Shown here piece after piece: positions 38,391 to 63,068 of a stretch of 64,000 nucleotides of DNA. The stretch's first letter is position 1, and each line of letters begins with the position of its first letter. This DNA is from a virus. The notes under the pieces are model-generated. The model was not told the DNA's origin, searched no databases, and worked only from the letters and a program-made list of their open reading frames with translations. The position numbers and the translations under genes were made by a program. The stretch lies in IMG/VR virus record IMGVR_UViG_3300013125_000002, one strand, 5' to 3'.

Positions 38391-38393
38391 GAG

Positions 38394-44213: not shown

Positions 44214-44228
44214 CTCTTCGATCTCCTG

Positions 44229-44885: not shown

Positions 44886-44893
44886 GTCGTTCT

Positions 44894-44930: not shown

Positions 44931-44952
44931 GAGCTTACTTCTGGTTTGATGC

Positions 44953-46398
44953 CTACGACGGCATCTGACCGATGTTGATCATGCGGAGCCACTTCTTCGG
45001 CGCGAACATGATCGGGGTCCCGTAGAGCAGGATCATCCAGCGGTAGGCCGGAGCCAGAACCGCCAGGTCGAGCCGCATCATCGGGGCCAGCTGCCGGAAG
45101 GTGAGGACGTTCGGGGTCAGCTCACCCATGTAGGCGATGCTGGTGAACGACAGGAGGAAGTTCACGTCGTTCACCACGGTGTTGCCACCAGCCGCCTGCG
45201 AAGCTGCCGGAACCTGCATGATCAGGCTGTAGGAAGCTGCACCAGTCGGGACTGCCGCACCCGATGCCATGGGGGCTGTGCGGTAGATGCGGAAGAACTC
45301 GGTCGGGAAGGCACCGATAGCTGCCGCATTGGTCAGGGTGACTGCCACATGCACGCCAGCGTCCTTGTTGACCTGGGTGACATCCTGAACCGCCGCCATG
45401 ACCGGAGAGAAGGCCGACTCACCGAAGCGGTTGCAGGCTGTGCAGACGTAGGCGTAGGAGTTGGTGCCAGCAGCGGCGTTCTTGTTGAAGTCACCGTCCA
45501 CACCAGCCACACCAGTGGTGATCTGCTGCGGAACCGCCGGAGCGTTCGCATGTGTGGCTGCCGACGGTGGGCTCGGAAGCCGACGGATGAAGACATCCGG
45601 GTTGAACTCGATGGTCCCGGCTTGGGTTGCCATCGAGGTGACTGCCTGCCCGATGGTTCCATTGACAGGAGCCGGCAGGTTGATCCGCTCACGCGGATAC
45701 ATCGTCTTGACGAGATCACTCAGAACCCGGGTGCCCAGGAACAGATCCGTTGGGTAGCCGTAGTTCTCGATGATCATGTTCGAAGCTTCCTCGATGTCAG
45801 CTTCCTGCATCGGCTGACCCTCGAGATCGACGAACGAGGTGGCATCGACCAGGGCATCGAGACCATCCCACTGCTCACTCTCGCCGTCGAAAGCAAGCGA
45901 GCTGTCAGCAGTGAAGAGAGCGTTCTCGACACGCTCGAGAAGCCAGAGGATGCCGTTCTGGTTCTCGAGTGCGATCACATCCCAATGCGCCGGGTGAACC
46001 AGCGTGGCTGGATGGGTCACTTCCCTCGTGGTCCCGAGGAACTTCACGAGCTGCGTGCGTCTGGCGTAGTTGCTGTCTGTGCTGGGAGGAAGCTCTCCTT
46101 CCTGCGTGAACGCAAACGCGCCATTGGTGCCGTAGTCGATCAGCTGATTGTACTCCTCAACCGTCGAGTAGGCAGGGCTCTTCGGGATCTTCTTCCAGAA
46201 CTTGATGTGAGAGTTGGAGTACGTCACCACCTTGAGGCTGGCCTCGAGCGACTCCACACGGAGAGCGGAGCCACCCGTCTGGTTGGTCAGCTGATAGCCG
46301 GCCTCAAGAGCCTTCGACAACTCGGCCACATCCATGGCGGGTGCGGAACCGAAGCCGTTCAGCCCTTCGTAGTGACGCAGCGAAATCTGTCCGTACAT
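44953..46398 (-). CDS. Major capsid protein (SPO1/Twort-like)
   Basis: ELSKALEAGY...GGSALRVESLE...STVEEYNQ...QLAPMMRLDLA...LYGTP. AAGGAGG RBS and strongly biased codons. Confidence 0.93.
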   Translation of the reverse strand: MYGQISLRHYEGLNGFGSAPAMDVAELSKALEAGYQLTNQTGGSALRVESLEASLKVVTYSNSHIKFWKKIPKSPAYSTVEEYNQLIDYGTNGAFAFTQEGELPPSTDSNYARRTQLVKFLGTTREVTHPATLVHPAHWDVIALENQNGILWLLERVENALFTADSSLAFDGESEQWDGLDALVDATSFVDLEGQPMQEADIEEASNMIIENYGYPTDLFLGTRVLSDLVKTMYPRERINLPAPVNGTIGQAVTSMATQAGTIEFNPDVFIRRLPSPPSAATHANAPAVPQQITTGVAGVDGDFNKNAAAGTNSYAYVCTACNRFGESAFSPVMAAVQDVTQVNKDAGVHVAVTLTNAAAIGAFPTEFFRIYRTAPMASGAAVPTGAASYSLIMQVPAASQAAGGNTVVNDVNFLLSFTSIAYMGELTPNVLTFRQLAPMMRLDLAVLAPAYRWMILLYGTPIMFAPKKWLRMINIGQMPS

Positions 46399-46438
46399 GT
46401 GATCCTCCTTCGCTTTCTGCGTCTGGGTTGTTGGCGGC

Positions 46439-47437
46439 TTAGCCCGCCTGGAAGCTCTTCATCACGAGATCTTCGACCGCCGGTCCCATCTGGCCGGTCA
46501 TCTCGAACTTGATCACGTCAAGCGAGTTCAGCTTGCCCTTCTCGACGAGATCACCCATGCGGTCCAGAACCTGGGCCTTGGTGAGCTGCTGCTCGCCCTG
46601 GCTCTTGCTCAGAACCTGCAGGTTTGGGCGGCCTGGTGCCGGGGCCACACGCATCTGGGACTTGGGGGCGCCAGCCGGAGCTTGAGCGATCTGCTCCTGC
46701 TGCTGGATCGTCCCCTGGATGCCGTGACCGATGTTGACGATGGCATCAGCCAGGCTCTTGTTGAACTCGCCCTGGTTGCTGGCGAACTCAGTGAGGGCGC
46801 CAAGAACCCGGCTGGTCACGTGGTCCGTGACCTGCTTGGTCACACGAGCCTCGAGCCCCTGCAGACCAGCAGCGAAGGACTTCGCGAACTCCGACAGGAA
46901 CTCGCTGACCTCGATCCCCTTGCGCAGGGTCTCGTTGGCTGCGACTTCGGACTGGAGAGACTTCCCGAACATCTCGTCTTCGGGCTCGTCATCGTCCTTC
47001 TTGTCCTTGTCGTCCTTCTTCTTGTCGTCCTTCTTGTCCTTGTCGTCCTTCTTGTCCTTGTCGTCGTCCTTGCCACCAGCCATGAATGGCGGCAGCTCGT
47101 CCTGACCCTTCGAGACTTCGCTGTGCTCGAGATCGCTCTTCAGAAGTGCAACCTCTTGCGGGGTCAGCGGCTGGCCCTTCATGACCTTCTCGGCGATGGA
47201 CTTGCGGACCTTCTTGGCGCCACCGTTGTAGTCGGTTCCGCCACCAGTGATGCTGTCATCCCAGCTGTCACCGATCTGGTCCTTGGTGCTCCCTGCCCAG
47301 CTCGAGACCTCGCTGTTGGGACCGGTGCAGATCTGCGACTTGTTCATGTCCGTCTGCTCCCCGGTCTCACCCTTGGCGAGAGCCTCCAGTCGAGCCAGGG
47401 ACTTGAAGAAGTCGTGCTGCGTGATCTTGTCGGACAT
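46439..47437 (-). CDS. Capsid scaffolding protein
   Basis: Lies between protease and capsid. Charged and helical, with a DDKDKK repeat and ~15 hydrophobic-x-K[S/A/G] sites. Start placed at ATG 47437 (GGGAG RBS). Confidence 0.75.
   Translation of the reverse strand: MSDKITQHDFFKSLARLEALAKGETGEQTDMNKSQICTGPNSEVSSWAGSTKDQIGDSWDDSITGGGTDYNGGAKKVRKSIAEKVMKGQPLTPQEVALLKSDLEHSEVSKGQDELPPFMAGGKDDDKDKKDDKDKKDDKKKDDKDKKDDDEPEDEMFGKSLQSEVAANETLRKGIEVSEFLSEFAKSFAAGLQGLEARVTKQVTDHVTSRVLGALTEFASNQGEFNKSLADAIVNIGHGIQGTIQQQEQIAQAPAGAPKSQMRVAPAPGRPNLQVLSKSQGEQQLTKAQVLDRMGDLVEKGKLNSLDVIKFEMTGQMGPAVEDLVMKSFQAG
46988..47072 (-). repeat. Imperfect 18-bp tandem repeat encoding DDKDKK in the scaffold
   Basis: gtccttcttgtccttgtc units on the plus strand. 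Confidence 0.8.
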
Positions 47438-47453
47438 CTTCTTGTCTCCCTTG

Positions 47454-48332
47454 CTAGTTCCGGTTGATCTCAAAGACCGCTTCAGTCAGGACGATGGACT
47501 CGGTTCTTGAAAGTCCACGTTCCCTGTGAAGCAGATCCACACACTCATCGAATGAGAGTGACTTGTTTGCCCACTTCTGATCTCTGACCTTGGAGTCAAG
47601 ACTTTCAGGAACCAACGCCGCACCACTGGAAGTCGTAAACGCCTTCTGCTCATCCTCAGTCTTGTTCAGATCGAGATCACCCTCGTTCGAGGGAGCCTCT
47701 ACGATGCCCTTCTTGCAGGCGCCACAAGGCTTCTTGCAAACGCAAGCGACCGACTTTCCAAGTGCAGTCTCCGGCATGATCAATCCGGATTGATCATGTA
47801 CACACCACATATCAGCTGGAACTGCGTTCAGAGACTTCACAACGTCCAGCCATGTGTGGGTGTTGATCGGTGCAGCAGTGATCGCGATATCCTGAATCCA
47901 GCACTTCAGGATGCGACGACCCGCCCGACGGATGACCTTGCCTTGGATAGAGAAACCGAGCTTGCGAGTAGAGCCTGAGGCAGCGAGAGCGTTGGCCAAC
48001 TCCCAGATCGCATCAGCGACCTTGTGGGTGCCAGGCTCCCAAAGAAAGCCCTTGGTCCAAAGACCTTCTTTGGTGATCCTTGCTTCAGTTGGCTGACCGA
48101 CTTTGTTCTCAAAACCGGGCTTGTGGTCGTTATTGTAGTACCCGTACTGCAGAAAGTACTCAGTATCGATCCCACGTTGCTCAACGATCTCAGTCTGAAG
48201 ATCTTCATCCTCGGTGGAGGAGATGCCCTGAACCCACCGAGTGTGGCCGAGAGTCTTCTTGGCTGTGTCGCTCTTGTTGATATCGAGCGGTAGCCAGAAG
48301 TCAAACTCGTTACTTTTGATGAGATCAATCAT
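47454..48332 (-). CDS. Prohead (maturation) protease
   Basis: GISSTEDEDLQTE...GYYNNDH...LGFSIQGKV...AITAAPINTHT are HK97-type/SPO1-like protease motifs. Confidence 0.88.
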   Translation of the reverse strand: MIDLIKSNEFDFWLPLDINKSDTAKKTLGHTRWVQGISSTEDEDLQTEIVEQRGIDTEYFLQYGYYNNDHKPGFENKVGQPTEARITKEGLWTKGFLWEPGTHKVADAIWELANALAASGSTRKLGFSIQGKVIRRAGRRILKCWIQDIAITAAPINTHTWLDVVKSLNAVPADMWCVHDQSGLIMPETALGKSVACVCKKPCGACKKGIVEAPSNEGDLDLNKTEDEQKAFTTSSGAALVPESLDSKVRDQKWANKSLSFDECVDLLHRERGLSRTESIVLTEAVFEINRN

Positions 48333-48426
48333 GCCCAGATACGCAAAGAGGGAGATCGGGCGGTAAAGCCCGTCTCCCTCTCTGGAGACCCTTTCGCTTT
48401 TCAGTCGATCCTATGCTCGACTGTCG

Positions 48427-48455
48427 AACCTACTGGTTCTAGAAATAGCTGTCAA
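48427..48455 (-). promoter_or_regulatory. Sigma70-type promoter TTGACA-17-TAGGTT with spacer motif TTCTAGAACCAG
   Basis: Consensus -35, intergenic, upstream of the protease-scaffold-capsid genes. Confidence 0.75.
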
Positions 48456-48475
48456 GGATCTTCGTGGGATACGAT

Positions 48476-48715
48476 CTAGCGGCGAGGTAAGTTGCTGACT
48501 TTGCGGACAAATAGACTAGGATTTGAAGCGAAAGACTTCATAAGGTCTTGGTCTAAGACGATAGGAATGGGGTGCTCTTTGCCGCAGCCTTTGCAGATCG
48601 CATAGGCTCGTTGACCTCGAAACACAATGGTCTTGTTTCGAATCTTGGTTGTATCGCCTTGGGACTTCATGATGACTTCACCACAACTACAAGCGTAGAA
48701 GTGCTCTATCATCAC
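48476..48715 (-). CDS. Small zinc-ribbon protein
   Basis: CSCG...CKGCG, directly upstream of the protease promoter. Confidence 0.6.
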   Translation of the reverse strand: MMIEHFYACSCGEVIMKSQGDTTKIRNKTIVFRGQRAYAICKGCGKEHPIPIVLDQDLMKSFASNPSLFVRKVSNLPRR

Positions 48716-49008
48716 AGTTTTCCATAACGGCGCTGAGCCTGCTCTGTCTGGGCTGTGTACTTGATCCTCTTCAGTTTCTCTATCTCAGCAGCGTCTGGTA
48801 CTGGCTTCTCCATCTCTGCTTCGATCTTGAGATCGCATATCTCCACGATGTCCTCAAGATTCTGACAGAGCTTGGCATGATGAAGTTGTGTCCCAGCAGC
48901 GGCTTTCGTCATGTCCTTTGATGGTGGAGGGAACTTACCTGTCTCCTCTGCATCCTTATGCTCATTGGCACGATCAATGTCATCCTCAGTGAAGAATCGC
49001 CCAGGCAT
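48712..49008 (-). CDS. Small hypothetical protein (candidate internal head protein)
   Basis: 98 aa with an AGGAG RBS. Contains DMTKA. Confidence 0.55.
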   Translation of the reverse strand: MPGRFFTEDDIDRANEHKDAEETGKFPPPSKDMTKAAAGTQLHHAKLCQNLEDIVEICDLKIEAEMEKPVPDAAEIEKLKRIKYTAQTEQAQRRYGKL

Positions 49009-49018
49009 GAATCTACTC

Positions 49019-52000
49019 CTATGCCGTCACGAAGAGCCCCAAGCTCTTACGAACAGGCTTCTGAGGTGCAGAGGCCGCCTTCTCTTTGGCCTCACGAATC
49101 GCATGGAGCACTTCCTTGCGCTTCTCAGGCATCATCTGAGGCTTTGTCACCATGCCCGGAGAGGTTGCTCGGATGAAATCCATCTGCCGGTGCAGATTGT
49201 CCCAATGAGCGTGTTCAAAGGGACTGTCTGTGTGGCGATAGGTGTAGATGTCAAGTTGATCACCCAACTTCGGGTCACGAGCTGCCCGACCGTGAGCCTG
49301 GAGAAGAGTCGCTGCGTCATCTGGAGCACCAACAACGTGGAGTGTGTCAGCCTCCTGAAGGTTGTGCCCAGCTGCAGTATCCTTGTCGATGATCACAACA
49401 GGAATCTTGTACTCACCCTTGACGTACTTACCGGTCTTGTCATCGATCCTGTCTGAGTCTTCTTTCCACATCTTCTTCCGAGCATCGACAACTGTCCCCT
49501 TGAGCTGACCTCCATCCTTGATGTCCTTGGTCAGTAGCTCAGGGTTCTTCGCATCTCGCAGTGAGGTTGCCATACTGACATTGGCAATTCCCGCCTGATC
49601 AAGTGCATGTTGTACAGCTGCTGCCTGCTGGGGAGAGCTGACCACTACAATGTGCTTTCGCTTCTTGCCAGAGATCTTCTCACGCTTCTCTGTCTTCCCC
49701 TCATGCCGAATGCGAACTCCACCCTGGATCTCAGCCTTGAGGTTATGGACCAAAGACTGAATCTTGGGGTTGTCATCAGGATCAGCAGCATCGACATTGA
49801 GCCGATGAAGATTGGCAATCTCATTCTCAGCGTTCTGTCTTGCCCTCTTCATCTGTTCTCTACGACCGGCGGGATCATCTGCACTGATCTTGGCATACTT
49901 GATTCTTCTGCCATCCTCGGTCGTGAGAATGCCACCCTTCTGGGCCTTGTCCTGATGCTTCTTGTAGACAGCAGCCTGCTGAGCTTCGATCTGCTTCTGA
50001 GACACTCTTTGGATATCAGAACGGCGTACATGCACATCGTGATGATTGATCTTGAAGGAGACCTTCTTGACATCGTCACCACTCACATATGGACCGATCT
50101 GGTCCATGATGTCTCTGGCAAGAAGGTCACGCTGAGCGCTCGTGCTACCACCCTCGAGCTGCTTGAACATCTCGTAGGGGATGAATGGCCGAGGCTGGGC
50201 ACTCTTCTTCCCGACCTGGCGGCCTGCCTCCTTCTCATAGACTGGACGCATTCTCCCAGTTGGCTCTTTGGTCTTAGGGTTCACTGTCTCCTTGTAGATC
50301 GGAGCACCCTTCTCATCTACGGCAGGACGCTGCGCTGACCAGCGCACAAGATCATAGGCTTCACGAAGATTCTCACGAGCCGGAGTCGCTGTGAGGGCCA
50401 CTTTGTGCGTGGAAGGAATGCTGAAGATGCGCTTACCGATGTTCATTCGGTTGCGCCCACGCAGACCCAATAGCATCTGCGGTTCATCCACAACGATCCC
50501 ATTCGGTGGGCGACCAGAACCACCCATCTGGCGCTCGAGATACTCATTGTTCTCTGCTGCCGACTGGTGGTTCATGACAAAGATGGCGTGCTTGAGATGC
50601 TTCGTCTGCTTGAGCAGACTGTCGATTTGCCCCTTTGAGTAATGCTCCGGGACCTCGACGATATAGGCTCGACCTTCACCCTGCTTGGGGAGCTTGGGGT
50701 CGACAAACTTCCCTGTTGGCTCTTTGTTCTTGTCGAGGACTGGCTTCCAGTGAACGATGCTGATCTTCTCAGGATCGAAGAACTTTGCAGCCTCCTGGAC
50801 CCACTCACTGACCTTTGCTGGTGGAACGATCACCACCCCACGATAACCAGCGTTGGGACCCTTCATGTCTTGGTCGACTCGAGCCCCAAGATAGCCCAAC
50901 CCCGTCAGTGTCTTGCCAGCAGCAGTTGATCTGGTGATGACTCCACCACCACTTTGCATCAGCCAACGAATATCTGTCGCTTGGTTGCCACGTAGCTTCT
51001 CCCCAGACTTGAGCTGAGGCAGAATCTCCTGAGCAGTCCCAAGTCCACCTTTGGACAAGGGCTTGTCAATCCAGTCATTGGTCTTTTCGTTGATCTGAGA
51101 AGTGTCGTCCTTGATCGCGTTCAGCTTGGATGCCTTCTGCGCATCCTGTACCCACCGCTCAAGGTGAGGCACAAGTCTCTCACCACGGAATCGAATCGTT
51201 GCTCCCTCAGGCCCCGTCTCGACTGCGACCTCTTCACGTGACTTGATGCCCAAGCTCTTCAGCTTCTCGCGAACCAGCTTCTCTTGTTCACCCTCAGACA
51301 AGCCCTCTCCACCCACATGCATGGATAGGTCTCGGAGATCCTCATTGGCCTCACGACCTCGACGAACAGACTTCAGAGAGTAGAGGAACCCAGCAGCTGT
51401 CTGGAGACCACCAATCGTCTCTCCGACTAGCTTCTCCTGCTCATCCAGATAGCGGTTGTCCATCTGAAGAGCTGCCATTCGATCCCGAAGACCTTCGGTG
51501 TCGATCTTCTGGACATTCCTGGTGCTGAGTCCTGCTTTCTTCAGACGCTCGATCAACTCATCGTTGACAGCGATATCCCCCGAAGCCATCTGCTCACGCA
51601 AGACCTTCTGCGCATCTTCGATCTCGCCAAGCCTCTGAAGCGCACGCTCCTCAGCTGCATGTTGATTCACGCGATTCCACATCGTGATGTCGTGAACCAT
51701 CTGATCATAATGCTCGAGCGTGAACTTCTCTCGCTTGCCTGTCTTTGGGTTAGAGATGGTTGTAGTACCCTTCTCTGCTAGATCGTGAAGGTACGAAGCC
51801 ATGGCATAAGAGGCCAACTCTGGCCCAAGACTGTCGGTTAGCTTCTTCAGATCTGGGACACCCAGACCTGGAGCAAAACCAGACACAAACCCTGTGAGAG
51901 TGCTTGTGGCACCGTCATTCATGTAGCCCTTGACATTGCCGCCCGTCTCGTCTTTCCAGTGGGAAGCAAGAGCTTTGTAAAGGTTGGTCTCCCTGGGCAT

Positions 52001-53359
52001 CGACGCTGCTGTCTCTCGAATGTTGGATGCAGCAGCATAGATATCCTTCTCATCGATTCCCATGTCGAGAAGGTCCTGGTGATCAACAAGCACTGCGTGA
52101 AGACGCATCTCTTCTACGTCAGGATCCATGCCCTCTGGTTGTCTGGACGCATAGACCGCCTTCCGCTTCACATCTTCGATCTTCCTATCATAGGCATCGG
52201 TCTGTTTGAGTGTCTGAACCAGACTCTCAGCAGTCTTTTGCGCTGCTAGGATTTCTTTCTGATCCTTGATAGGAAGCTTAGGCTCCGAGGGGCGAATGGA
52301 AAGGTCCACAGCACCTGGCCCTGATAAGGCTTCACCACCACGCATCTGAGCCTCATGGATCTTGTCATCCATGATGTCGTGCATTGCGACCTGAACTTCC
52401 TGAGGGGTCTCAGCGTCAGCAAGCTTGTTGATATCCTCCCCCGAGAGGTTCATGTCGAGGTGCATCTCAGACGTGAAGTCTTTGACGTTGAGCTTGGGCT
52501 CTTTGCCCTGTTCAACTTGCTTCTTGGCGTCCTGCAGAGCCTCGATGGTCTTTCCCAGTACCTCTGATGCACGATCTCTCTTCTCTGACTTCATACGAGA
52601 AATGGCAAGATCGACTGCACCATCGATCTTCTTTTCATCCAGACCTGCTTGTCGAAGCTGTGTTGCGAGATGCTCCTTCACTCCCTCGAGCTGTTGGCCG
52701 AACAATGAAGCCGCATCTTTTCGGATACCCACGGCACCAAGCACATTGTCCTTCAGCCTCTTGGCTTGGCGCATCAGCTTTTTCTTGAGAGGAGCAGCCT
52801 CATCATGGATCTTCTTGATGTGTTCCTTGACCTTTGATTGCTTCTGAGTCGCCTCCATTTCCTCTGGAGTCGGAGGGGCCTTGGACTGCCGATCACCCAT
52901 CTTGGAAGCGAAGTGAAGATACTCTGCCCCCTTCCCACCAGTGACTCGTTCTTTGCCTGTCTCTGGATCAGTCTCTTTTTGTGGAGGCACTACACCAGCC
53001 CCACCCACAATAGCAGCCTTGTTGTCCGGTAGCCTGGCTACAAGAACGTGTCGATGAGACAGAGGTCCAGACTGAGGGGTACACCAGAAGGTACTCCCCA
53101 CTGGAACACTACTGATGACAATCTTGCCCTGCCCGTCCAGCTCAGGTCGGACTGGGGCTCCGTACCTGGCTCTGATCTTCGCGAAGTGGGCCTTCTCCTG
53201 GTGGCTGTACTGCTTCGCCTTCAGAAGGGGCTCCTCCGTTGGCAGCAGCTTCCTGCTCTTCTGAATCTCCTGCAGGCTCTTCCCAAGCAGATTGAGGAGT
53301 CGATTCGTCTGCGGGTCCACTACGATCAGTGGAATCAAGCTCGTCCTCTGCGTCAACAT
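49019..53359 (-). CDS. Large SNF2-like superfamily 2 helicase/ATPase protein (candidate injected protein)
   Basis: Motif I STAAGKT, II VVDEPQ, III LTATP..EN, V/VI AAGHNLQ...QAHGRAAR. Start placed at ATG 53359 (GAGGAG RBS). Confidence 0.75.
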   Translation of the reverse strand: MLTQRTSLIPLIVVDPQTNRLLNLLGKSLQEIQKSRKLLPTEEPLLKAKQYSHQEKAHFAKIRARYGAPVRPELDGQGKIVISSVPVGSTFWCTPQSGPLSHRHVLVARLPDNKAAIVGGAGVVPPQKETDPETGKERVTGGKGAEYLHFASKMGDRQSKAPPTPEEMEATQKQSKVKEHIKKIHDEAAPLKKKLMRQAKRLKDNVLGAVGIRKDAASLFGQQLEGVKEHLATQLRQAGLDEKKIDGAVDLAISRMKSEKRDRASEVLGKTIEALQDAKKQVEQGKEPKLNVKDFTSEMHLDMNLSGEDINKLADAETPQEVQVAMHDIMDDKIHEAQMRGGEALSGPGAVDLSIRPSEPKLPIKDQKEILAAQKTAESLVQTLKQTDAYDRKIEDVKRKAVYASRQPEGMDPDVEEMRLHAVLVDHQDLLDMGIDEKDIYAAASNIRETAASMPRETNLYKALASHWKDETGGNVKGYMNDGATSTLTGFVSGFAPGLGVPDLKKLTDSLGPELASYAMASYLHDLAEKGTTTISNPKTGKREKFTLEHYDQMVHDITMWNRVNQHAAEERALQRLGEIEDAQKVLREQMASGDIAVNDELIERLKKAGLSTRNVQKIDTEGLRDRMAALQMDNRYLDEQEKLVGETIGGLQTAAGFLYSLKSVRRGREANEDLRDLSMHVGGEGLSEGEQEKLVREKLKSLGIKSREEVAVETGPEGATIRFRGERLVPHLERWVQDAQKASKLNAIKDDTSQINEKTNDWIDKPLSKGGLGTAQEILPQLKSGEKLRGNQATDIRWLMQSGGGVITRSTAAGKTLTGLGYLGARVDQDMKGPNAGYRGVVIVPPAKVSEWVQEAAKFFDPEKISIVHWKPVLDKNKEPTGKFVDPKLPKQGEGRAYIVEVPEHYSKGQIDSLLKQTKHLKHAIFVMNHQSAAENNEYLERQMGGSGRPPNGIVVDEPQMLLGLRGRNRMNIGKRIFSIPSTHKVALTATPARENLREAYDLVRWSAQRPAVDEKGAPIYKETVNPKTKEPTGRMRPVYEKEAGRQVGKKSAQPRPFIPYEMFKQLEGGSTSAQRDLLARDIMDQIGPYVSGDDVKKVSFKINHHDVHVRRSDIQRVSQKQIEAQQAAVYKKHQDKAQKGGILTTEDGRRIKYAKISADDPAGRREQMKRARQNAENEIANLHRLNVDAADPDDNPKIQSLVHNLKAEIQGGVRIRHEGKTEKREKISGKKRKHIVVVSSPQQAAAVQHALDQAGIANVSMATSLRDAKNPELLTKDIKDGGQLKGTVVDARKKMWKEDSDRIDDKTGKYVKGEYKIPVVIIDKDTAAGHNLQEADTLHVVGAPDDAATLLQAHGRAARDPKLGDQLDIYTYRHTDSPFEHAHWDNLHRQMDFIRATSPGMVTKPQMMPEKRKEVLHAIREAKEKAASAPQKPVRKSLGLFVTA

Positions 53360-56300
53360 CATCCGGCTCCTCATGATCCGTCTCAGGGTTCGGGAGATCT
53401 AGCTTCCCACCCGCCATCTGATTCAGGTACTGCCACTCATGCTCACTCTCGTGGAGAGGATGACTGTGCAGCCACTCACTGAAGCCAACCTCGTGGTCAA
53501 ACCGATCTGGTGGATCTGCCACCACAGAATGAGCTGGCACCTCATCATCGTCGCCCGGTTCAGGTTCGTCAATGGACTTGAGCATCTTGCCACGAAGACC
53601 CTTGTCTTTGATCTTCTGCTTGAAGTCATCCAATGACATCTCTGTCAAGCTACCGAAGAACTTGGGGTTATCATACTGTCTGAGGTAGGCGGCCTTGGCT
53701 TCCTCTGGGGAGTCAAAACCAAGCATCACTTTGTCCTCATCGAACTCAGTGAAGTCTGGCTTCTTCATCTGGTGAATCACAAAGACCCGCTCAGAGTTCT
53801 TGTGTGGCCCCATGTAAACATCCACGGCATCCCCATCGACCCCCTTTGACCCACTCACATAGCCGTAGTCGTAGTTCATCTTGGTACGACCATGCTCTTT
53901 GGCATTAGGGTCATACCACTCGCGATAAGAACCCTTCTTGTTCTCAATCGCAATGTTCATGCCCTCATACTTGATCCGACCCATGAGGGGATGAGCCTTC
54001 TGCATGTCAGGATCAATGGCATTCATCCAAAGTGACTTAACCGCCACCGGATCGATGTAGCTCCGAAGAGCTGTAGCTGCGTGGGCCTTGCGGTCCTCAC
54101 CCTTACCGATGTAGTGGCCCAGAGCCTTTGCTGACTCAAGGGCCGCTTCCTCTGTCACACCCGAAAGGGTCTTGGCTGTAATCCGCCCCTGGCTGTACTG
54201 CTGGAGCAGTCTCTCAAAAGCTCGAGAGAAGATCTCCGTACCATGATAGGTGCGGAACTGCTTGGGCGTGACACCCAAGGTGGCCAAGGTTCTTCGAAGC
54301 TTATTGTACCCAATCTCTTGGAACTTGACCTGAGAGCCACGACGCACAGGCACTGAGAAGAGGTAGTCCGTTCTCTTCTTCCCCTCAGCCAGTGTCAGCT
54401 CCTGCAAGATCGACATCGACTTGGGATCGAGAACTACAACCTGCTGTTGGTCGACGCCCAACTTGCCAACGTAGGAAAACGTCGCCATGTTGCCTTTGAT
54501 CTTGACGTTCCCTACTTTGAGGGTCGTCAGACCAATCGTGCCCCTCTCTTCCTCATGGATCTTCCTACCAGCGCGCATGTAGGCTTGATCCAAAAGAGCA
54601 ACCATGAGCCCCAGTGCCCGATGCGCCAATTGCTTCGACTGCATCAGAGAACTATAGAACTTCCTCACCTTTGGGAGCTGCTGATCAAAGTGACGATTGT
54701 CCTGATTGAACTTCAACTCATCTCGCTCACGGAGATCACTATCGTAGTACCCGTGTTCGAAATGGGAGGTCTCGTCATTTGGGTCTGCCCGCCACCTGGC
54801 CCCCCACATCCGCAACGGAACAGCCTTGTTGTACTCTGGGTTCCATTCCGCATGCTCCGGAACGGCACGGTTCATCTTGCGACCTGAACGAGGATCGAAG
54901 AACTGCGGGTGTTGAATGGGATCAGGTTCGTCTCGATGTAGCTGTGGCGTTCCTAGCTTCTTGTCATAATGGGCATGCCCCACCGGAGCATTCGTTCCCT
55001 GAATGACATTCCCCACATGATCTCGGTAGTAATACCGATAGCTTCCAGGAACTCCCTCCCGTCTCCAGTACTTGTAGTGCTGGGAACGGGTGCCCTTCTG
55101 GGCTTTGCGGAGGATATCGAGAGCCTTCGAGAGACGATTCATGCTGAGGCTCTGCAGCAGCTGAATTGCCTTCGCCACAGGGGATAGTTTTGCCTGCATC
55201 GCTTGAAACTCCGGTAGGCCAGACAGCTTCTGATGAGCACTCAAGAAGAGATCAACCAGCTGGCTCTCTGTCGGGGGACGAGGAAACTCTCGTGTGTGCT
55301 TTGTGGCCAACTCAGCTGTGACCTCAGTAAATGGCCTGATGTTCTGGAGGTCTCCCTTGGGGGCCAAGGTCAGAATAGCGGCTCGCTCAGCTGCTGTGAG
55401 CAACGGATGCTGCTTGACCATCGTGACCCAAGAGTGCTTCTCCGATCCCGATAGCTTCTGAACCTTTGGCTCCTCAACTTCACGCTCAAAGGGTTCAACA
55501 AACTCATCCCCACCCTCTGACTGCCAATGGACAATGAAAGCTTGAGCTTGCTCAGGTGACTTGATCTCCTTCAATTCATGCAAAGCCAGAAATGAAGTGA
55601 CCTGTCTCTCATGATCTGCAGTGTCCGAAGCTACGTATTTGGCCAAACGATCTTCTTGTCTTCCTGACCACTCCTGCAGCGATTCTTCACGAGCAATCAG
55701 ATCATCTTCCGCTGACTGAGCATGAGCACCCTCACTGACAATCTCCTCATGGCCAGGTGGCAATTCTTCTCGGCTCACTTGGTCCAGTACGTCCATGGTT
55801 CGACCACTGTGGTCTACAGTCGAGATGAACTTACGTCGCTCTTTGACCTCGTCGAGGATCGCCTTGGTCTCTTTGAAGTGCTCCCACCACAAACAGTGTC
55901 CAAGGTAGGTACTGAATCGCCATCCCTTCTGGGGATCATAAGAGTTGACTGCACGTTTCACGGCCCGAAGCGTGGGGGAGTCAGGGTCAATCTCAATCTT
56001 CTTGGCTCTACCTGGCCCTCCATAGTAACCAAGGAGACGAGCCATGTTTCCAGGATCAAATACGTTATAGAGTGTCAGCTGACGCTGAGCAGAGAGAACC
56101 GCCAATCCGAAATGCTCTCGGATGATGTTCGCGCAGAGCTTCAGCTGCTCAGCCTCTGAGGCCTTGAGCTTGCGCACCCAGCGCAGACCTCTCCGCTGCC
56201 ACGGCTGCCCTGTCTGTCTCTTGACCGTGGCCTGGTAAGGCTCAAGGACTCGATGCCAGGTGAGTCTTCCCTGTTCCAGTGCTGTTGTGGTGGGTCGTAC

Positions 56301-56999
56301 CTGATCAATAGGAAACTCTTTGGCCGGCTTGACTCGCTGACCCGATGCCCGCTGCTGTCGGTACTCTTCCTTCAGCCACTCCTTGAAGTTCTGCTTGAAG
56401 AATGGACTTGGGACCCAGCTACCTGTTTGCTCTGGAAACCGATTGAACGGACTCTCGGCATGGTAGCGAATCGACATGCGCCCACTCGGAGAATCGATCC
56501 CCGACTGGCCTCGTTCCCTCACCTCAAACCAGGGTCTGCCAAAAGCGTCGTTGACCGTTGCAGTTGACGACCGACGACGCATCCAATTCTCAACAGCCTC
56601 GTAAGAGGGCAGATGAGTTACCGCATCTCGTGCTTTCGTACTACGGTGCGGAAGGATGATGAAGGGGCGCTTTGCTGAGGGCCTGACAACGAGCTTCAGC
56701 TCAGGCTTACCCTCTGCTGAGCGGATGATCGACACATCATCAGCACCCGACTTGAGGGCTTTCTCTCGTGCATGGTGGAACGCTTGCTCTGCTGTGTGCC
56801 CTCGAGCAACTGAATCCGAATGAGTGGTAACGGAGTGCTCATCTGAAACAGCAGAGGCTGCCCACCCATGGTTCTTTGGATGTCTGAGATCAGAGTACTT
56901 GTAGTTCCAGCGGTCGTTTTTCCACCACCGCAGAACATACTTCCCGCCTAGATGTTCCCCTCGGTGAGCTTTGACTAAATCGATCCAAAGAGCGAACAC
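53142..56999 (-). CDS. Multidomain protein: sigma70-like domain, DNA topoisomerase IB and inorganic-pyrophosphatase-like (InPase) domain
   Basis: Sigma region 2: AVNSYDPQKGWRFSTY. TopoIB: MRAG, YVGK, TPKQFRTY, LGH...SYIDP. InPase: IAIENKKGS...YGY...GVDGDAVDVY...FDEDKVMLGF. Confidence 0.8.
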   Translation of the reverse strand: MFALWIDLVKAHRGEHLGGKYVLRWWKNDRWNYKYSDLRHPKNHGWAASAVSDEHSVTTHSDSVARGHTAEQAFHHAREKALKSGADDVSIIRSAEGKPELKLVVRPSAKRPFIILPHRSTKARDAVTHLPSYEAVENWMRRRSSTATVNDAFGRPWFEVRERGQSGIDSPSGRMSIRYHAESPFNRFPEQTGSWVPSPFFKQNFKEWLKEEYRQQRASGQRVKPAKEFPIDQVRPTTTALEQGRLTWHRVLEPYQATVKRQTGQPWQRRGLRWVRKLKASEAEQLKLCANIIREHFGLAVLSAQRQLTLYNVFDPGNMARLLGYYGGPGRAKKIEIDPDSPTLRAVKRAVNSYDPQKGWRFSTYLGHCLWWEHFKETKAILDEVKERRKFISTVDHSGRTMDVLDQVSREELPPGHEEIVSEGAHAQSAEDDLIAREESLQEWSGRQEDRLAKYVASDTADHERQVTSFLALHELKEIKSPEQAQAFIVHWQSEGGDEFVEPFEREVEEPKVQKLSGSEKHSWVTMVKQHPLLTAAERAAILTLAPKGDLQNIRPFTEVTAELATKHTREFPRPPTESQLVDLFLSAHQKLSGLPEFQAMQAKLSPVAKAIQLLQSLSMNRLSKALDILRKAQKGTRSQHYKYWRREGVPGSYRYYYRDHVGNVIQGTNAPVGHAHYDKKLGTPQLHRDEPDPIQHPQFFDPRSGRKMNRAVPEHAEWNPEYNKAVPLRMWGARWRADPNDETSHFEHGYYDSDLRERDELKFNQDNRHFDQQLPKVRKFYSSLMQSKQLAHRALGLMVALLDQAYMRAGRKIHEEERGTIGLTTLKVGNVKIKGNMATFSYVGKLGVDQQQVVVLDPKSMSILQELTLAEGKKRTDYLFSVPVRRGSQVKFQEIGYNKLRRTLATLGVTPKQFRTYHGTEIFSRAFERLLQQYSQGRITAKTLSGVTEEAALESAKALGHYIGKGEDRKAHAATALRSYIDPVAVKSLWMNAIDPDMQKAHPLMGRIKYEGMNIAIENKKGSYREWYDPNAKEHGRTKMNYDYGYVSGSKGVDGDAVDVYMGPHKNSERVFVIHQMKKPDFTEFDEDKVMLGFDSPEEAKAAYLRQYDNPKFFGSLTEMSLDDFKQKIKDKGLRGKMLKSIDEPEPGDDDEVPAHSVVADPPDRFDHEVGFSEWLHSHPLHESEHEWQYLNQMAGGKLDLPNPETDHEEPDDVDAEDELDSTDRSGPADESTPQSAWEEPAGDSEEQEAAANGGAPSEGEAVQPPGEGPLREDQSQVRSPSPT

Positions 57000-57779
57000 T
57001 TACCACTCCAGACTGCTCGTCATCTGGCCACGAATCTGGTCCAGCTGCTTGGCATCACGGTTGTCCGTGAGATCCATCAGAGACCCACGGACATCCTCGC
57101 GGATGTAGTCATCGTCCATCCAAGGTTCGTAGTCATAGTCCTCACCCCAGATCGACTTTGCCACTTGGAGCAGTTGATCTCGATTCAGACTGTCCAAGTT
57201 CTCGAGAAGCTGTTGAGCACCGGGAGCCTGGGTAGCCACAGGTTCTGGCCCAACTGCCTTGAAAACCTCCTGAGTGGCCTTTCGATAACCGTCTTTGTCA
57301 CCACGTAGAGCAAACCTACGAAGATAGAAGATCGGATTTCCCTCAAGAGGGATTTTGAAACCCAGTGCCTCCGACCAGACCTCATTCTGATGCTCCCTTC
57401 GATCCAGCGCACAAGGTTCTTCAAATGGATGCTTCTCGCCTCGAAACCGAAGAGGATAGGTCAGACGCTTTTCGTCCAGATCACCCTCGTAGTCCTCGTC
57501 CGTATTCACAGGTGAGACCTGGGCACCCCCTACCGAAATTGAAGGACCAGACTTGCCAAAACTTGCCAGCTTGTCTTCGGCTTCTGATTCCTTGTCGGCA
57601 TCAGCAATCTGAGCATCCTCGTCTACACCATCTCCGTTGTCGTCCCCAGTGTCACCTGCGTCAGCTTGAGACTCTTTGGCATCCTGTTGCTTCATCTGAA
57701 GCTCTTCAGGATCACCACCACGAAACTCTCCCTCGCTCTTTGCAAGTAGCTCATTCATGGCATCGAGGATCGACATCAC
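57000..57779 (-). CDS. Acidic hypothetical protein (candidate internal head protein)
   Basis: 259 aa with LLAKS and FGKS sites near the N-terminus. Confidence 0.6.
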   Translation of the reverse strand: MMSILDAMNELLAKSEGEFRGGDPEELQMKQQDAKESQADAGDTGDDNGDGVDEDAQIADADKESEAEDKLASFGKSGPSISVGGAQVSPVNTDEDYEGDLDEKRLTYPLRFRGEKHPFEEPCALDRREHQNEVWSEALGFKIPLEGNPIFYLRRFALRGDKDGYRKATQEVFKAVGPEPVATQAPGAQQLLENLDSLNRDQLLQVAKSIWGEDYDYEPWMDDDYIREDVRGSLMDLTDNRDAKQLDQIRGQMTSSLEW

Positions 57780-58679
57780 TCACACCTCAGGGAAAGCTTC
57801 CTCAGGTCGCAACAGAGTGAAGCGACCCATATCATTCCAACCCCAACCAGGGGGCACGTATCTCAAACGCCCAAAGCAGTGTGGGTGCAGCGGAGGCACC
57901 ACCGGCTTGGCATGCAATCTCCAAGGTCTCTGGTAATTCGTTCCCTCATTCTCCAACAGCTCCTTGAGCTTGAAGATCTTTGGGTTCCCAGTCTTGGGAT
58001 CGTAATAGATTCGCCGACAGTCATCACACATATCGGCATCATGTACAATAGCCACATCACTGTCGATCCCATCAGAGTCAGCGTAGATACCCTCCTTCTG
58101 AGAGATCGCAGTCATCACTCCACGCTGCTTAGCTGTGTGCAACTCTGTAGCAGCCAACCTCTCCCAGTTCCGATGAGGTTCCTTCAGAGCCTCCACTAGC
58201 TCTCTGGCTACTTGTCGATAAGTCTGATTTAGATCAGTACCAGTCTTGATCTTGTCAGAAATTGTAGACCTAACATGCCCTTCGGTTACTGTACGATGAG
58301 TCGCTTGTGCAAGTCTCTGGTAGAGACCATTCTTGATGTCGTCCATCAGACTGCGAAACTCAGTCTGAGCCGACAGCTCTGCCGCTTTGATCTGCAGCTT
58401 ATCTACGTCCGTGTAGCGACCAGTTGCTACTTCCTGGAGCTGCTTCCAGGTGAGCTTCTTGAACTCGGCCTCCTTGAGCAGAGATTGAAGCTTCCCAAGG
58501 ACGTAAGCATAGCGAATAGCTGATGCATTAACATCCATCGGAAGCTTACCGCTGGCCTTCAGATCATGGAGATCCTTCTCAGTGATCTCCTGATCCCCAA
58601 ACATCCTCCACATGAGCCATGTGGTGTGACAACGGATGATCTCGGCCAGCTTCTCAATCTGTGCTCTGGAGAGAACCAT
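57780..58679 (-). CDS. MuF-like head morphogenesis/minor head protein
   Basis: WERLAATELH...CDDC...PPLHPHC is the MuF-type signature. Lies in the portal-protease interval. Confidence 0.8.
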   Translation of the reverse strand: MVLSRAQIEKLAEIIRCHTTWLMWRMFGDQEITEKDLHDLKASGKLPMDVNASAIRYAYVLGKLQSLLKEAEFKKLTWKQLQEVATGRYTDVDKLQIKAAELSAQTEFRSLMDDIKNGLYQRLAQATHRTVTEGHVRSTISDKIKTGTDLNQTYRQVARELVEALKEPHRNWERLAATELHTAKQRGVMTAISQKEGIYADSDGIDSDVAIVHDADMCDDCRRIYYDPKTGNPKIFKLKELLENEGTNYQRPWRLHAKPVVPPLHPHCFGRLRYVPPGWGWNDMGRFTLLRPEEAFPEV

Positions 58680-58683
58680 GCAC

Positions 58684-59895
58684 CTAGCGGCTCACCATCA
58701 GAGGTTGTGAGAGACGCTTCTTTCTGTGCTCCGTGTCGAGTTTGGCTTCAGCTCTGTCCACCCCTAGGTGAGGCACTCCGGTCGGCTTTTGCTTCAAAAG
58801 CTCCTCAACTTCCTCCTTGCCACCATAACCATAGTCCTTCTTGAGATCATCAGAACTCTTCTTGATCTCAATGTAGAGCTGTGGTTGGGTACTTGGGGTT
58901 GAGGGCATGACCCCATTGATCTGTCCTTCTGTGACACCCGGAAGGACCTGTGACTTGAGGACTCGGCGTGGATCTTCTTCGGTGAAAACAAAGAGCTTGG
59001 AACCCGTCGGTTGGCTAGCTGGAGCTAGGCGGCGAGGACCAATCATATCTGGGCGAATCATCGTACTCTCCTGTGACTTCTCTGTTGTCTCAGCAACAGT
59101 GAGACTGTGGATCTTGGACGAACCATCACCATCAAACCCGAACAGGTTTCTCTCGCCCCTCTCATGCCCCCAGTCTTCGATCTTCAAACCACGAGAGCAT
59201 CCCCAATCACCTAGCTTCTTCAGCTCCTCTAGAAGTGGCTTCAGTTGTTCAGCAGCTTGGGGACTGACTACCATCTCGATCTTATACTGCTTACCATGCA
59301 GCGACTTGACGAAGAGATCATCGATAGAAAGAGACTTCGATGCATCGATCTCTTCACCCCAATTCCCTGCATGAAGAGCATGGAACTGCTGACGGGAGCT
59401 AGAGGGCACTGAGCTATTCTTGTAGAGATGCGGATTGGCCTTGTAGTGCAAGATCCAATCACGATGGTGCTGCTCCGTGTCCTGTACACCCTGACCTTCG
59501 AGATGCTGAATTGTCGACGAGGCCTGGTGGTACTTCTTGAGTGATTGATCTGCTCTGGCAGGATCGTTATTGAGGGTGTGGTAGAGATAGTAGTGGCGAG
59601 CGTGCCCCTGAATAGCCCTAGCTGCTGCTAGTTGGTGACCTGGTGAGGAGACATCAGGGCCTTTGATCTTCACCGATGGCTTCTCTTGAGACGAGAACGT
59701 TGGTGCTGGCTTCAGGGAAGCTTCACTCATGCGGGGGGCAGCCACGGTATCTTCGTGACCCGTCACGGCTGAGGGTTGGGCACTACGCTTCGCCACCATG
59801 GTTGCAGCATCAGCAGCTTTGACCAACGTACCCTGATCCCACAGGTCACCAGCATCCCCAATCCGGAACAGCATCGCATCGAGAAAAAGCTGCAT
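58684..59895 (-). CDS. Hypothetical protein (candidate internal head protein)
   Basis: 403 aa with LVKA, FVKS, VLKS and IKKS sites. Confidence 0.6.
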   Translation of the reverse strand: MQLFLDAMLFRIGDAGDLWDQGTLVKAADAATMVAKRSAQPSAVTGHEDTVAAPRMSEASLKPAPTFSSQEKPSVKIKGPDVSSPGHQLAAARAIQGHARHYYLYHTLNNDPARADQSLKKYHQASSTIQHLEGQGVQDTEQHHRDWILHYKANPHLYKNSSVPSSSRQQFHALHAGNWGEEIDASKSLSIDDLFVKSLHGKQYKIEMVVSPQAAEQLKPLLEELKKLGDWGCSRGLKIEDWGHERGERNLFGFDGDGSSKIHSLTVAETTEKSQESTMIRPDMIGPRRLAPASQPTGSKLFVFTEEDPRRVLKSQVLPGVTEGQINGVMPSTPSTQPQLYIEIKKSSDDLKKDYGYGGKEEVEELLKQKPTGVPHLGVDRAEAKLDTEHRKKRLSQPLMVSR

Positions 59896-59898
59896 GAC

Positions 59899-60090
59899 CT
59901 ACTTCCTTCCCTGAAGCTGGAGTAGTGCTATCGAAAGAGCCGGTCCCCCATCCAGCAGAAAACGAACAGCATCTGGCTCTGGCATGTGGTAGTCCTCGAC
60001 CAGCATTCGAAGGACACGTTTGCCCTCAAGGGACATACCTGCTGCACCCTTCTTGAGCTGGACCCGACCTGAAACTGTGTTACTCGTCAC
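59899..60090 (-). CDS. Small hypothetical protein
   Basis: Fills the gap in a tightly packed operon. GTG start at 60090 is assumed. Confidence 0.45.
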   Translation of the reverse strand: MTSNTVSGRVQLKKGAAGMSLEGKRVLRMLVEDYHMPEPDAVRFLLDGGPALSIALLQLQGRK

Positions 60091-60319
60091 GGCCACCGGC
60101 CAGTACCTCAGCAATCTCATTCGTCATACTGCTCATCATAAGATCGAATGAGTCGTTGACGAATGCTGCCAAATGAGATGCTGCCTCATTCTCATCTGGC
60201 AGTACGGCATCTTCGTGATCATGCGACTTCTTGAGTTTTGCAACTGCCAACTCAAGAGACTTGATCACCTCATCAGTGCCCATGCCTTCAGGCACCTGAA
60301 TCTTGACCTGGGATGGCAC
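60080..60319 (-). CDS. Small hypothetical protein
   Basis: 79 aa with VIKS and LKKS sites, abutting its neighbours. Confidence 0.55.
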   Translation of the reverse strand: MPSQVKIQVPEGMGTDEVIKSLELAVAKLKKSHDHEDAVLPDENEAASHLAAFVNDSFDLMMSSMTNEIAEVLAGGRDE

Positions 60320-60784
60320 TTAGTCTCTGCTCGTGTGCCGAAATGGAACGCTGCCACCGCCTCTGCCAGCGTTCCAGTTCAACTCCTCGTTCATATGTCG
60401 CAGTACACGAAGAGCTACCAGGCCGCGCTCCTCTTCTGTGAGTCTGGCCATGGTACCGGCGATCTTCGGATCTACGAGCTGGAACTTCTGGGGAAGAATG
60501 AGAGTCAGAAGACCCTGCTCGAAGCTGGTCAGATTCCCACCGTCCTCTGCCTTGTGGATAAGAGAGACGACTTCCTGGGCCACGAACTCCGTGTCAAGTC
60601 GACCATCTGGATACCGACGAAGAGGTGTGCAGCCTTCGTTGCGCATGAGCAACGAATCTTGCTGTGGCGTCCGGTAGCTAACTGGGTGAGTGACTCCCTC
60701 ACGGTAGCTTGTGGACTTCACCACAGTCTCTTCATCACGACGAAGATTGAGAGGCACTCTGCCTGCGAATGGGTTGTTACTCAT
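60320..60784 (-). CDS. Hypothetical protein
   Basis: 154 aa with an AGGAG RBS and VVKS, IHKA sites. Confidence 0.6.
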   Translation of the reverse strand: MSNNPFAGRVPLNLRRDEETVVKSTSYREGVTHPVSYRTPQQDSLLMRNEGCTPLRRYPDGRLDTEFVAQEVVSLIHKAEDGGNLTSFEQGLLTLILPQKFQLVDPKIAGTMARLTEEERGLVALRVLRHMNEELNWNAGRGGGSVPFRHTSRD

Positions 60785-60793
60785 CTTGATCTC

Positions 60794-62077: not shown

Positions 62078-62081
62078 CAGA

Positions 62082-63068
62082 TCACCCGCAGCGCGGACAC
62101 CTCATGGTGTTGTCGCTTTTCTTCACCATCTGCCCACCACAACTCTTGCAGCACTGTGACTTGTTGATGACGCAGGTTGGGCACTCACCAAAGCTCTTGG
62201 CGAATGCACGACCGCAAGCTCCACACCTGATGTGCTCATGGGCCTTGGCGATCCGATGGGTACGCTCCGCCTCATCCTGCTTCAGCTCGTCGATGAGCTG
62301 GGGAGTGAGTGGACCTGTTGCAAGAGCCGAGATGTCCTTGGTGACAAGAGCACTACCCGACTCGAACGTTGAGCGGTGAGCAAGTGCTCGAGGGAGACGA
62401 GGCACCGAACGGGCTGTCACCGCCTTCTCAAGATCCGATTTCTCCACTGCCTTACTGATCTCCATCAGCTCATCGAAAGACTTGTTCATGGACTTTTCCT
62501 TGCTGAGGCCCGCCTGATGGAGCCCGATTGCAACAGCTTGCTTCTCACCACCTGGATGGCGGCCAAGGTGATGCATGTGGTGTGCGATCATCTCTGATGC
62601 CATCTCTTGTTTGGCATCTGTCTTCCTGGGCGGCTTCTTGATCTGACCATCCTTGGTCTTGTATCGAGCGATCCTGGAAAGGGAACCCTTAGGGTCCTTC
62701 GTTCCGTAGTGACGCCCATAGTGCTTCTCTGCTGCCTTTTCCAACTGATTCAGGCTGGCAGTCATACTCCCCGAAGCGACCGGAGCAGGTAGGGGCGTAG
62801 GTACAGCTCGTTGAAAGCCAAGATCCTTCATGTCCATGACCGTACCCTCAGCTATGGCTTTCTTTGCCGTCGGTGGGCTGACGATGTCTTTGACTTCTTT
62901 CGAAGGCAGAGCACCAAACTGATGAGAAGGCTTACCGACCGGTGTTCCGGCTCTCATAGCACCAGAACCCGAATAGGATGCTCCCTCTTTTCCGATCTTC
63001 ACTTCCCCCAGATATGCCTTCTGCTCATCCTCTGCCCAACTACCGAGGTGAATTGGCTGCTTTGGCAT
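62082..63068 (-). CDS. Hypothetical protein with C-terminal double zinc ribbon
   Basis: CGAC/CPTC/CKSC/CPRC, an EKQAVAIGL motif and many xxK[SA] sites. Start placed at ATG 63068 (GGAG RBS). Confidence 0.6.
   Translation of the reverse strand: MPKQPIHLGSWAEDEQKAYLGEVKIGKEGASYSGSGAMRAGTPVGKPSHQFGALPSKEVKDIVSPPTAKKAIAEGTVMDMKDLGFQRAVPTPLPAPVASGSMTASLNQLEKAAEKHYGRHYGTKDPKGSLSRIARYKTKDGQIKKPPRKTDAKQEMASEMIAHHMHHLGRHPGGEKQAVAIGLHQAGLSKEKSMNKSFDELMEISKAVEKSDLEKAVTARSVPRLPRALAHRSTFESGSALVTKDISALATGPLTPQLIDELKQDEAERTHRIAKAHEHIRCGACGRAFAKSFGECPTCVINKSQCCKSCGGQMVKKSDNTMRCPRCG

Follow-up and report, generated by a model that had tools for sequence, protein, structure and literature searches.

A predicted head-packaged phage protein combining a divergent sigma-like module with a type IB topoisomerase and an InPase domain

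The DNA analysed here (the window) is a stretch of 64,000 nucleotides from the virus record IMGVR_UViG_3300013125_000002. It represents a phage structural region on the minus strand, and the gene in question encodes a 1,285-amino-acid protein, P0001. That strand carries, one after another, the portal (63040 upward), six small genes without family names, P0001, an SNF2 protein, a protease, a scaffold, the major capsid protein and tail genes, and the portal-to-capsid block including P0001 has the identical gene order in nine related contigs. The P0001 gene lies at 53142..56999 (-), exactly where a first-pass annotation made from the sequence alone had placed it. It starts with GTG at 56999, with GGAG located 7-10 nucleotides 5' of this codon, and ends with TGA at 53142-53144; the start abuts the stop of the preceding gene. 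From its N-terminus the product is composed of a putative propeptide, an N-domain, a sigma-like module, a beta-hairpin, a type IB topoisomerase (TopoIB), an InPase domain and an acidic tail.

The identity of the two enzymatic modules is practically beyond doubt. The topoisomerase occupies residues 716-992 (54024..54854, -) and covers the end of the N-terminal domain and the catalytic domain. Residues 758-962 match Pfam PF01028 (Topoisom_I) with E 6.6e-26 and 91.5 bits against a cut-off of 23.7, and the PDB matches of this stretch are type IB enzymes only (6z01, D. radiodurans 2f4q, and those of Leishmania, human and poxvirus; best E 2.5e-12). The catalytic pentad R809, K846, R916, H962 and Y981 is invariant in eight homologues. 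R809 (MRAG) aligns to MRVG, FRVG or LRAG, K846 (VGK) to LGK or KGK, and R916 (FRTY) to FRTY or FRTW, all three matching catalytic residues of 6z01, 2f4q and human Topo I, and H962 (LGH) and Y981 (SYIDP) fit the C-terminal motif of TopIB enzymes. The InPase domain, residues 1006-1131 (53607..53984, -), matches PF18823 with E 2.9e-40 and 137.7 bits over profile positions 11-135 of 135, and its acidic metal ligands (E1019, D1055, D1057, D1060 and D1087-E-D-K1090) are likewise invariant in the eight homologues. Among solved structures it comes closest to the C-terminal domain of the phage portal PDB 9b41, and the family also occurs in proteins whose annotation reads minor head or virion protein.

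Residues ~277-603 very probably form a highly divergent module of the sigma-70 family. When residues 262-630 were searched against the PDB with phmmer, sigma factors made up 31 of the 32 matches at E<=5, the best being RpoS (E 8.3e-5) and SigA (E 2.6e-4), and the SigA alignment spans regions 2.2 to 3.2. Searched exhaustively with phmmer, 1.84 billion representatives yielded just 19 proteins, one of which is an RpoS carrying the Pfam domains r1.2, r2, r3 and r4 (E 9e-5). With hhalign, the profile of the P0001 family aligned to an RpoS alignment on the region 2.2-2.3 motif RAVxxYDPxKGWRFSTY..WW (91.6% probability, P 8e-7). Sub-threshold matches to Pfam Sigma70_r2 were present in three of 15 relatives and in the L006 protein (E 1.3e-4 to 6e-3); the relatives score 16.7-20.7 bits against a gathering cut-off of 24, and P0001 itself does not rise above that cut-off.

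Structure comparison pointed in the same direction. The AlphaFold2 model of residues 262-630, with a predicted local distance difference test (pLDDT) score of 70.5, was compared with 48,161 PDB chains, and more than 25 of the top 50 were sigma factors. Model residues 16-125 superpose on sigma2 with a root-mean-square deviation (rmsd) of 2.1-3.1 A over 67-83 residues (Z 6.8-7.8), and model residues 256-342 superpose on sigma4 of SigF, CnrH, BldN, SigR, SigD and SigA. Seven sigma4 structures stand in the top 50 (Z 5.7-6.6, rmsd 2.0-4.2 A over 57-69 residues), a likeness of structure only. Whole chains of SigB, sigma28, sigma32 and ECF factors align to the sigma2 and sigma4 parts in order, and the matches from the ESM Atlas and BFVD libraries were likewise mainly sigma factors. 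Foldseek gave no PDB match at E<=0.001 for either this model or that of the N-domain; the weak top rows for the sigma-like model were still sigma factors.

Within the module, the sigma2-like domain (residues 277-391; 55827..56171, -) comprises regions 2.1-2.4 and carries the motif aligned to RpoS. Counterparts of the sigma70 melting aromatics Y425, Y430 and W433/W434 are found in W360, Y365 and W371/W372, and the domain has two inserts, one of ~25 residues between the helices of regions 2.1 and 2.2 and one of three residues ahead of the WW dyad. The helical middle part (residues 430-511; 55467..55712, -), in which the acidic loop QSxGGDxFxEP is invariant, is aligned by phmmer to SigA regions 3.0-3.2 (WxxRQEDRLA vs GxEEDSRLG). 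It is followed by a helix-turn-helix domain that appears sigma4-like in the model (residues 517-603; 55191..55451, -), an assignment made from structure. A domain match of residues 531-572 to sigma region 1.2-2.1 (E 3.4) was rejected, hhalign giving it 0.1% and the structure putting this stretch in sigma4. Also rejected was P0012 (174 amino acids) as a stand-alone sigma-like protein: it is a frameshifted fragment of a longer frame, L081:3-1214, that is interrupted at 1031 and resumes in another frame at 1065, with a frameshift or an error of assembly, and no splitting of the gene, behind the interruption. Another relative, P0023 (713 amino acids), ends before TopoIB, and its contig is just 2.4 kb long.

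The sigma-like module is not the N-terminal region of the protein, as the first-pass annotation had it, since a domain of ~265 residues (the N-domain, residues 11-275; 56175..56969, -) precedes it. This is a conserved alpha/beta domain of no recognisable fold. Its model (residues 1-275, pLDDT 78.9) was used as a control in the same structure searches and gave no coherent family, only scattered low matches with a best structural Z of 5.6. Otherwise the modules named by the first-pass annotation held up well. The topoisomerase with an intact R-K-R-H-Y set was borne out by Pfam, the PDB alignments and the invariance in homologues, and the InPase domain by its Pfam match. The sigma70-like module gained support from phmmer, hhalign and the AlphaFold2 model, with no match at the Pfam threshold; of its two proposed parts, region 2 was recovered by both sequence and structure and region 4 is suggested by structure, and the model, a check that the annotation had itself proposed, matches sigma2 and sigma4 in that order.

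A short motif, hydrophobic-x-K|A/S (the bar marks the predicted cut), recurs in P0001 and in head proteins of the window, and its distribution is that expected of a sequence code recognised by the head maturation protease. Among 38 window proteins it is enriched only in the scaffold (46439..47473, -; 15 copies vs 2.3 expected), o340 (9 vs 2.0), o259 (4 vs 0.7) and the protease (47454..48332, -; 4 vs 1.2), and no enrichment was found in the tail proteins of the window. The protease, assigned through phrog_1028 (E 3.3e-47), has IDLIK|S and DINK|S at its own N-terminus. The scaffolds of eight related contigs contain 12-15 copies each, where ~2 are expected. In the capsid protein, [ED]LxK|ALEAGY stands where the variable N-terminal peptide meets the conserved core in nine of nine phages; in the window this is LSK|A at capsid residues 27-30 (46309..46320, -), on the border of the variable propeptide and the conserved ALEAGYQ core. 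The Bacillus phage SPO1L1 (L083, OQ921336.1:6012-12397) has ALNK|ALEAGH in its capsid protein, 11 copies vs 1.2 expected in its scaffold, and ADILK|S in its protease. As the pattern also occurs in an SPO1-type Bacillus phage, the code would therefore belong to this head-module type, which suggests a cleavage code common to Herelleviridae-like heads. A search of the literature gave nothing usable on published cleavage sites of SPO1-type capsid proteins.

In P0001, strings of the motif are present at residues 8-11, 608-611, 623-626, 630-633, 999-1002 and 1139-1142. Exactly four positions, K10, K610, K1001 and K1141, are kept in eight of eight sequences of the P0001 family (45-59% identity), and all four lie outside the folded domains: in the disordered N-terminus, in the low-confidence linker after sigma4, in the 10 residues that separate TopoIB from InPase, and immediately behind InPase. 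In the wider family (~30% identity), the TopoIB-InPase linker holds at least one copy of the motif in 14 of 14 sequences. Cleavage of P0001 at the four sites is rather more probable than its absence. The putative propeptide, residues 1-10 (56970..56999, -), ends in LVK|A, of which K10 and A11 are invariant in the eight homologues, and it is disordered in the model. The linker, residues 606-635 (55095..55184, -), is of low confidence and contains the invariant VAK|A followed by LSK|A and LRK|A. In MQK|A between TopoIB and InPase (residues 999-1002; 53994..54005, -) the K is invariant and is followed by A or S, and in MLK|S after InPase (residues 1139-1142; 53574..53585, -) the M and K are invariant.

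Two of these sites are accompanied by a beta-hairpin. The first, of the form 'KY..R...W.Y.Y', comes directly after the first motif at residues 17-36 (56892..56951, -; strands E21-27 and E30-36). The second (HYKYWRREGVPGSYRYYY) is located at residues 640-660 (55020..55082, -), and its motif is common to unrelated polyvalent proteins, i.e. phage proteins that unite many effector domains. Motif and hairpin form a compound module, in which hydrophobic-x-K-[AS] is followed after 1-12 residues by an HKY[IV][KR]REG.PG.Y.Y.Y beta-hairpin. It was found twice in P0001, once in o427 (at the N-terminus, near 61950-62077, -) and two to four times between the domains of unrelated MuF/PBECR2/ParB polyvalent proteins of other phages (P0014, P0016, P0018 and P0025). 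No Pfam family covers this module. Head cargo may use it generally for punctuation or targeting.

The acidic tail, residues 1143-1285 (143 residues; 53142..53573, -), contains 41 D/E and 5 K/R and overlaps the start of the next gene. The overlap with this SNF2 gene is in another frame and amounts to 179-233 nucleotides (53142-53374), the SNF2 starts being possible only at 53374-53320. In the relative L002, the acidic tail is a separate gene of 166 amino acids that overlaps the SNF2 gene by 50 nucleotides. The arrangement in the window could represent a long true overlap, translational coupling or frameshifting.

Relatives of P0001 split, fuse or swap modules at the motif sites, which the first-pass annotation had named as a point worth checking. 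Most homologues end 3-15 residues after MLK|S, and the domains added after it in others are SAM-lyase-like (P0005 and P0010) or GNAT-like (P0009). Modules resembling o259 are fused N-terminally in P0017, P0024, P0028 and L005-L007 (L005:7273-13740; L007:949-5238), and in L009, L014 and L018 InPase resides on small separate proteins without TopoIB or sigma. The order N-domain, sigma-like module, hairpin, TopoIB and InPase persists on a single polypeptide at identities between 59% and ~30%.

With at least four folded modules and a gene placed between portal and capsid in nine contigs, P0001 has the make-up of a polyvalent protein, and it is likely that it is packaged in the head. A fuller reading, in which P0001 is a polyvalent protein that is packaged in the capsid, processed by the protease and delivers a sigma-like, a topoisomerase and a pyrophosphatase activity, is one that we hold with evenly divided confidence; we infer packaging, cleavage, ejection, RNA polymerase binding and the enzyme activities of the modules from comparisons of sequences and models. 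P0001 would be expressed late along with the genes for morphogenesis and incorporated into the prohead, where the head maturation protease, presumably the product of the gene at 47454-48332, would cut it after the K of hydrophobic-x-K|A/S. The predicted pieces are the 10-residue propeptide; residues 11-610, with the N-domain and the sigma module (sigma2, degenerate sigma3/3.2 and sigma4); residues 611/633-1001, with the hairpin and TopoIB; residues 1002-1141, with InPase; and the acidic tail from 1142 to 1285. These pieces would exit the capsid together with the DNA. The sigma-like piece would then engage the core of the host RNA polymerase and would guide it to promoters of the phage or else displace the host sigma, the ATP-independent topoisomerase would take away supercoils arising from DNA entry and early transcription, and InPase would clear away pyrophosphate or a signalling nucleotide. 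Possibly the SNF2 protein encoded next to P0001 is part of the same kit. Promoter specification by the sigma-like module is rather less likely than not, as is the complete scheme, in which a sigma factor injected with the genome reprograms the host core at DNA entry and TopoIB and the pyrophosphatase are released from the same precursor as helpers. The overall interpretation given in the first-pass annotation, that of a precursor cut by the head protease into an injected kit, is partly supported.

Several observations weigh against a processed precursor that delivers a working sigma factor. The motif is not over-represented in P0001, where [LIVMF]-x-K-[ASG] occurs seven times vs 4.2 expected (p 0.13), a count not above chance; of the cleavage sites that had been proposed at the module borders, all six strings are present and four of them are conserved, at the N-terminus and three borders. 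The KA of two sites belongs to the repeated motif-plus-hairpin unit and could be kept for structure and not for cleavage, and the strict sigma-Topo-InPase order in one chain would fit an uncut protein too. P0001 might indeed be packaged as an uncut or N-terminally trimmed chain, whose sigma-like module tethers the topoisomerase and the pyrophosphatase to RNA polymerase or promoter DNA, so that supercoil relief and pyrophosphate removal are physically coupled to early transcription. The long persistence of the module order in one polypeptide agrees with this, as does the finding of no stand-alone sigma-like form among the 1.84 billion representatives, where the one short match was the frameshifted fragment, and folding could shield the internal motifs. 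However, these internal motifs do not vary and fall within linkers of low model confidence, and TopoIB and InPase are separable in relatives, and we consider an uncut chain unlikely. It is very unlikely that P0001 stays in the cell as a late enzyme, such as a late sigma joined to enzymes of DNA topology and of nucleotides that serve late transcription, replication or packaging. Its gene is co-oriented with the late genes and T4 gp55 provides an example of a late phage sigma, but the portal-to-capsid position is conserved in nine contigs, InPase is a marker of packaged proteins, and the N-terminus bears a propeptide-like motif, as do the capsid protein and the protease.

Other objections concern the sigma-like module itself. 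No Pfam sigma family was found for P0001, even at E<=5, the structural Z scores are middling for helical proteins, the modelled sigma4 is without sequence-level support, and the inserts before the WW dyad and between regions 2.1 and 2.2 may mean that promoter melting is lost. A module of this kind might act as a decoy that occupies the sigma-binding surfaces of the host core, or binds a host factor, and shuts off host transcription with no promoter recognition. Conservation that is strongest in region 2.2-2.3, insertions close to the -10 recognition helix, the degeneration of region 3 and the lack of a Pfam-level sigma4 would all suit a decoy, yet the melting aromatics and the sigma4-like helix-turn-helix, which a pure decoy would not need, have been kept, and such a role seems to us improbable. 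There is only a very slight chance that the likeness is convergent or too degenerate, and that residues 277-603 form a helical region that binds DNA or protein and has nothing to do with RNA polymerase. Besides the missing Pfam match, Foldseek values of E >= 0.1 against the PDB and Z scores of 6-8, which are common for helical models, speak for a spurious resemblance; against it, four independent libraries and two sequence methods give sigma factors almost exclusively, both domains occur in the right order, and relatives have sub-threshold Sigma70_r2 matches.

As for the surroundings of the gene, the SNF2-type helicase protein P0002 (1,451 amino acids; 49019..53374, -) is encoded next after P0001 in the same block and has copies of the motif at its N-terminus. 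On the other side lies o259 (57000..57779, -), which carries an LAK|S..FRGGDPEE module. The repeat unit of o259, found after K|[ASG], reads ..G.FRGGDPE[EL]LQ.K.EEK with an acidic stretch added; o259 contains one copy, and in distant relatives tandem copies are fused upstream of the sigma-Topo-InPase protein. Further along, o299 (57780-58679) is the best-conserved small gene of the block (49-70% identity), and its homologue in L001/L002 (L001:6666-8069) has an extra Peptidase_C39 domain that the window copy does not have. In o340 (62082-63104, -), which adjoins the portal gene, the nine motif copies are clustered in the C-terminal two thirds, as in the scaffold, and o340 may represent another degradable protein of the core or scaffold kind. 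Two very large proteins of the tail region (1,582 and 1,551 amino acids; 33642-43049, -) contain Laminin_G_3 / concanavalin-like lectin domains and are probably fibres or receptor-binding proteins.

The major capsid protein belongs to phrog_752 (E 1.4e-98) and shares 42-46% identity with the capsids of SPO1-like Bacillus phages; the source phage is a member of a clade of uncultured phages whose head module resembles that of Herelleviridae. The stretch 44000-64000 had no megablast match among 50,697 phage records, and tblastn of P0001 against the same records gave matches essentially through InPase alone, at <=15% coverage. A look-up of the P0001 sequence yielded no identical record. No relative with the motif NSYDPxKGW was found in 185,579 species genomes, which therefore offered no prophage or host clue. 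The P0001 family comprises eight close and ~8 distant relatives, from uncultured phages only. A promoter and terminator scan of 46000-64000 detected no signal above chance.

Among known systems, P0001 is nearest to the polyvalent proteins. Iyer et al. 2017 (PMC5512222) placed InPase among the packaged phage polyvalent proteins, in agreement with what the first-pass annotation had stated about this domain. P0001 and the proteins of that survey (including portal-InPase fusions, e.g. PDB 9b41, and P1 DarB/DdrB) are alike in carrying many unrelated effector domains on one late-gene polypeptide encoded by the head genes, in the InPase family, in predicted packaging and delivery with the DNA, and in proposed processing into units. 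Unlike P0001, however, the polyvalent proteins of PMC5512222 are described with no mention of either a sigma factor or a type IB topoisomerase. A zincin-like MPTase domain is frequent in polyvalent proteins according to the same survey, and is not stated as obligatory; P0001 has no peptidase family by Pfam and no zincin-like domain, and its processing is predicted from the prohead protease motif instead.

The virion RNA polymerases of N4 and phiKZ-type phages (PMC7598289) are, similarly to what is proposed here, a transcription component made late, packed into the head and injected before phage protein synthesis. These polymerases are complete, host-independent enzymes, whereas P0001 would bring a specificity-subunit-like module only and use the host core. 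We found no report of a packaged sigma factor in the literature. The phage sigma factors T4 gp55, SPO1 gp28 and phiEco32 gp36 have a sigma-70-family fold and redirect the host core. They are small, free-standing and expressed after infection, whereas the sigma module of P0001 sits inside a 1,285-residue head-block protein, is far more divergent and is accompanied by a 265-residue N-domain. Phage-encoded sigma factors are also treated in PMC8948821 and PMC7824862, and the latter, a jumbo-phage survey, mentions free sigma factors of phages and, in some jumbo phages, a free phage-type TopIB, neither of them as virion cargo.

With the poxvirus and bacterial TopIB enzymes (PDB 1a41, 2f4q), the topoisomerase of P0001 shares the catalytic domain and the pentad, and ATP-independent relaxation is predicted for it. 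It differs from them in being a phage enzyme, in its fusion to other modules and in a longer insert that separates the His motif from the Tyr motif. The poxvirus type IB topoisomerase is packaged in vaccinia cores and is reported to promote early transcription. By analogy, a location in the virus particle tied to early transcription may hold for TopoIB of P0001. As to processing, the internal proteins (IPs) and Alt of T4 are cut at LxE by gp21. P0001 can be likened to this T4 cargo and to the ejection proteins of SPN3US and phiKZ (PMC10052503, PMC7411985), which have a short N-terminal targeting sequence or propeptide, share their motif with capsid and scaffold, and are ejected; it differs in the motif, hydrophobic-x-K|A/S, and in predicted cuts that fall between enzymatic domains and not at the N-terminus only.

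The architecture of P0001 is a new variation on the polyvalent-protein theme, known from uncultured phages only. To the packaged polyvalent repertoire the locus would add sigma-like and TopoIB domain types, given that packaging is as predicted. The hydrophobic-x-K|A/S code predicts both the cut points of precursors and the points of module exchange, and could aid the annotation of head cargo in uncultured phages. How the first genes of a phage get read is a basic question. In the solutions known so far, the phage either has promoters that the host holoenzyme can use or injects a complete polymerase. If the proposal made here is true, an injected specificity subunit would constitute a third strategy of phage early transcription, one that requires neither a polymerase of the phage's own nor newly made protein.

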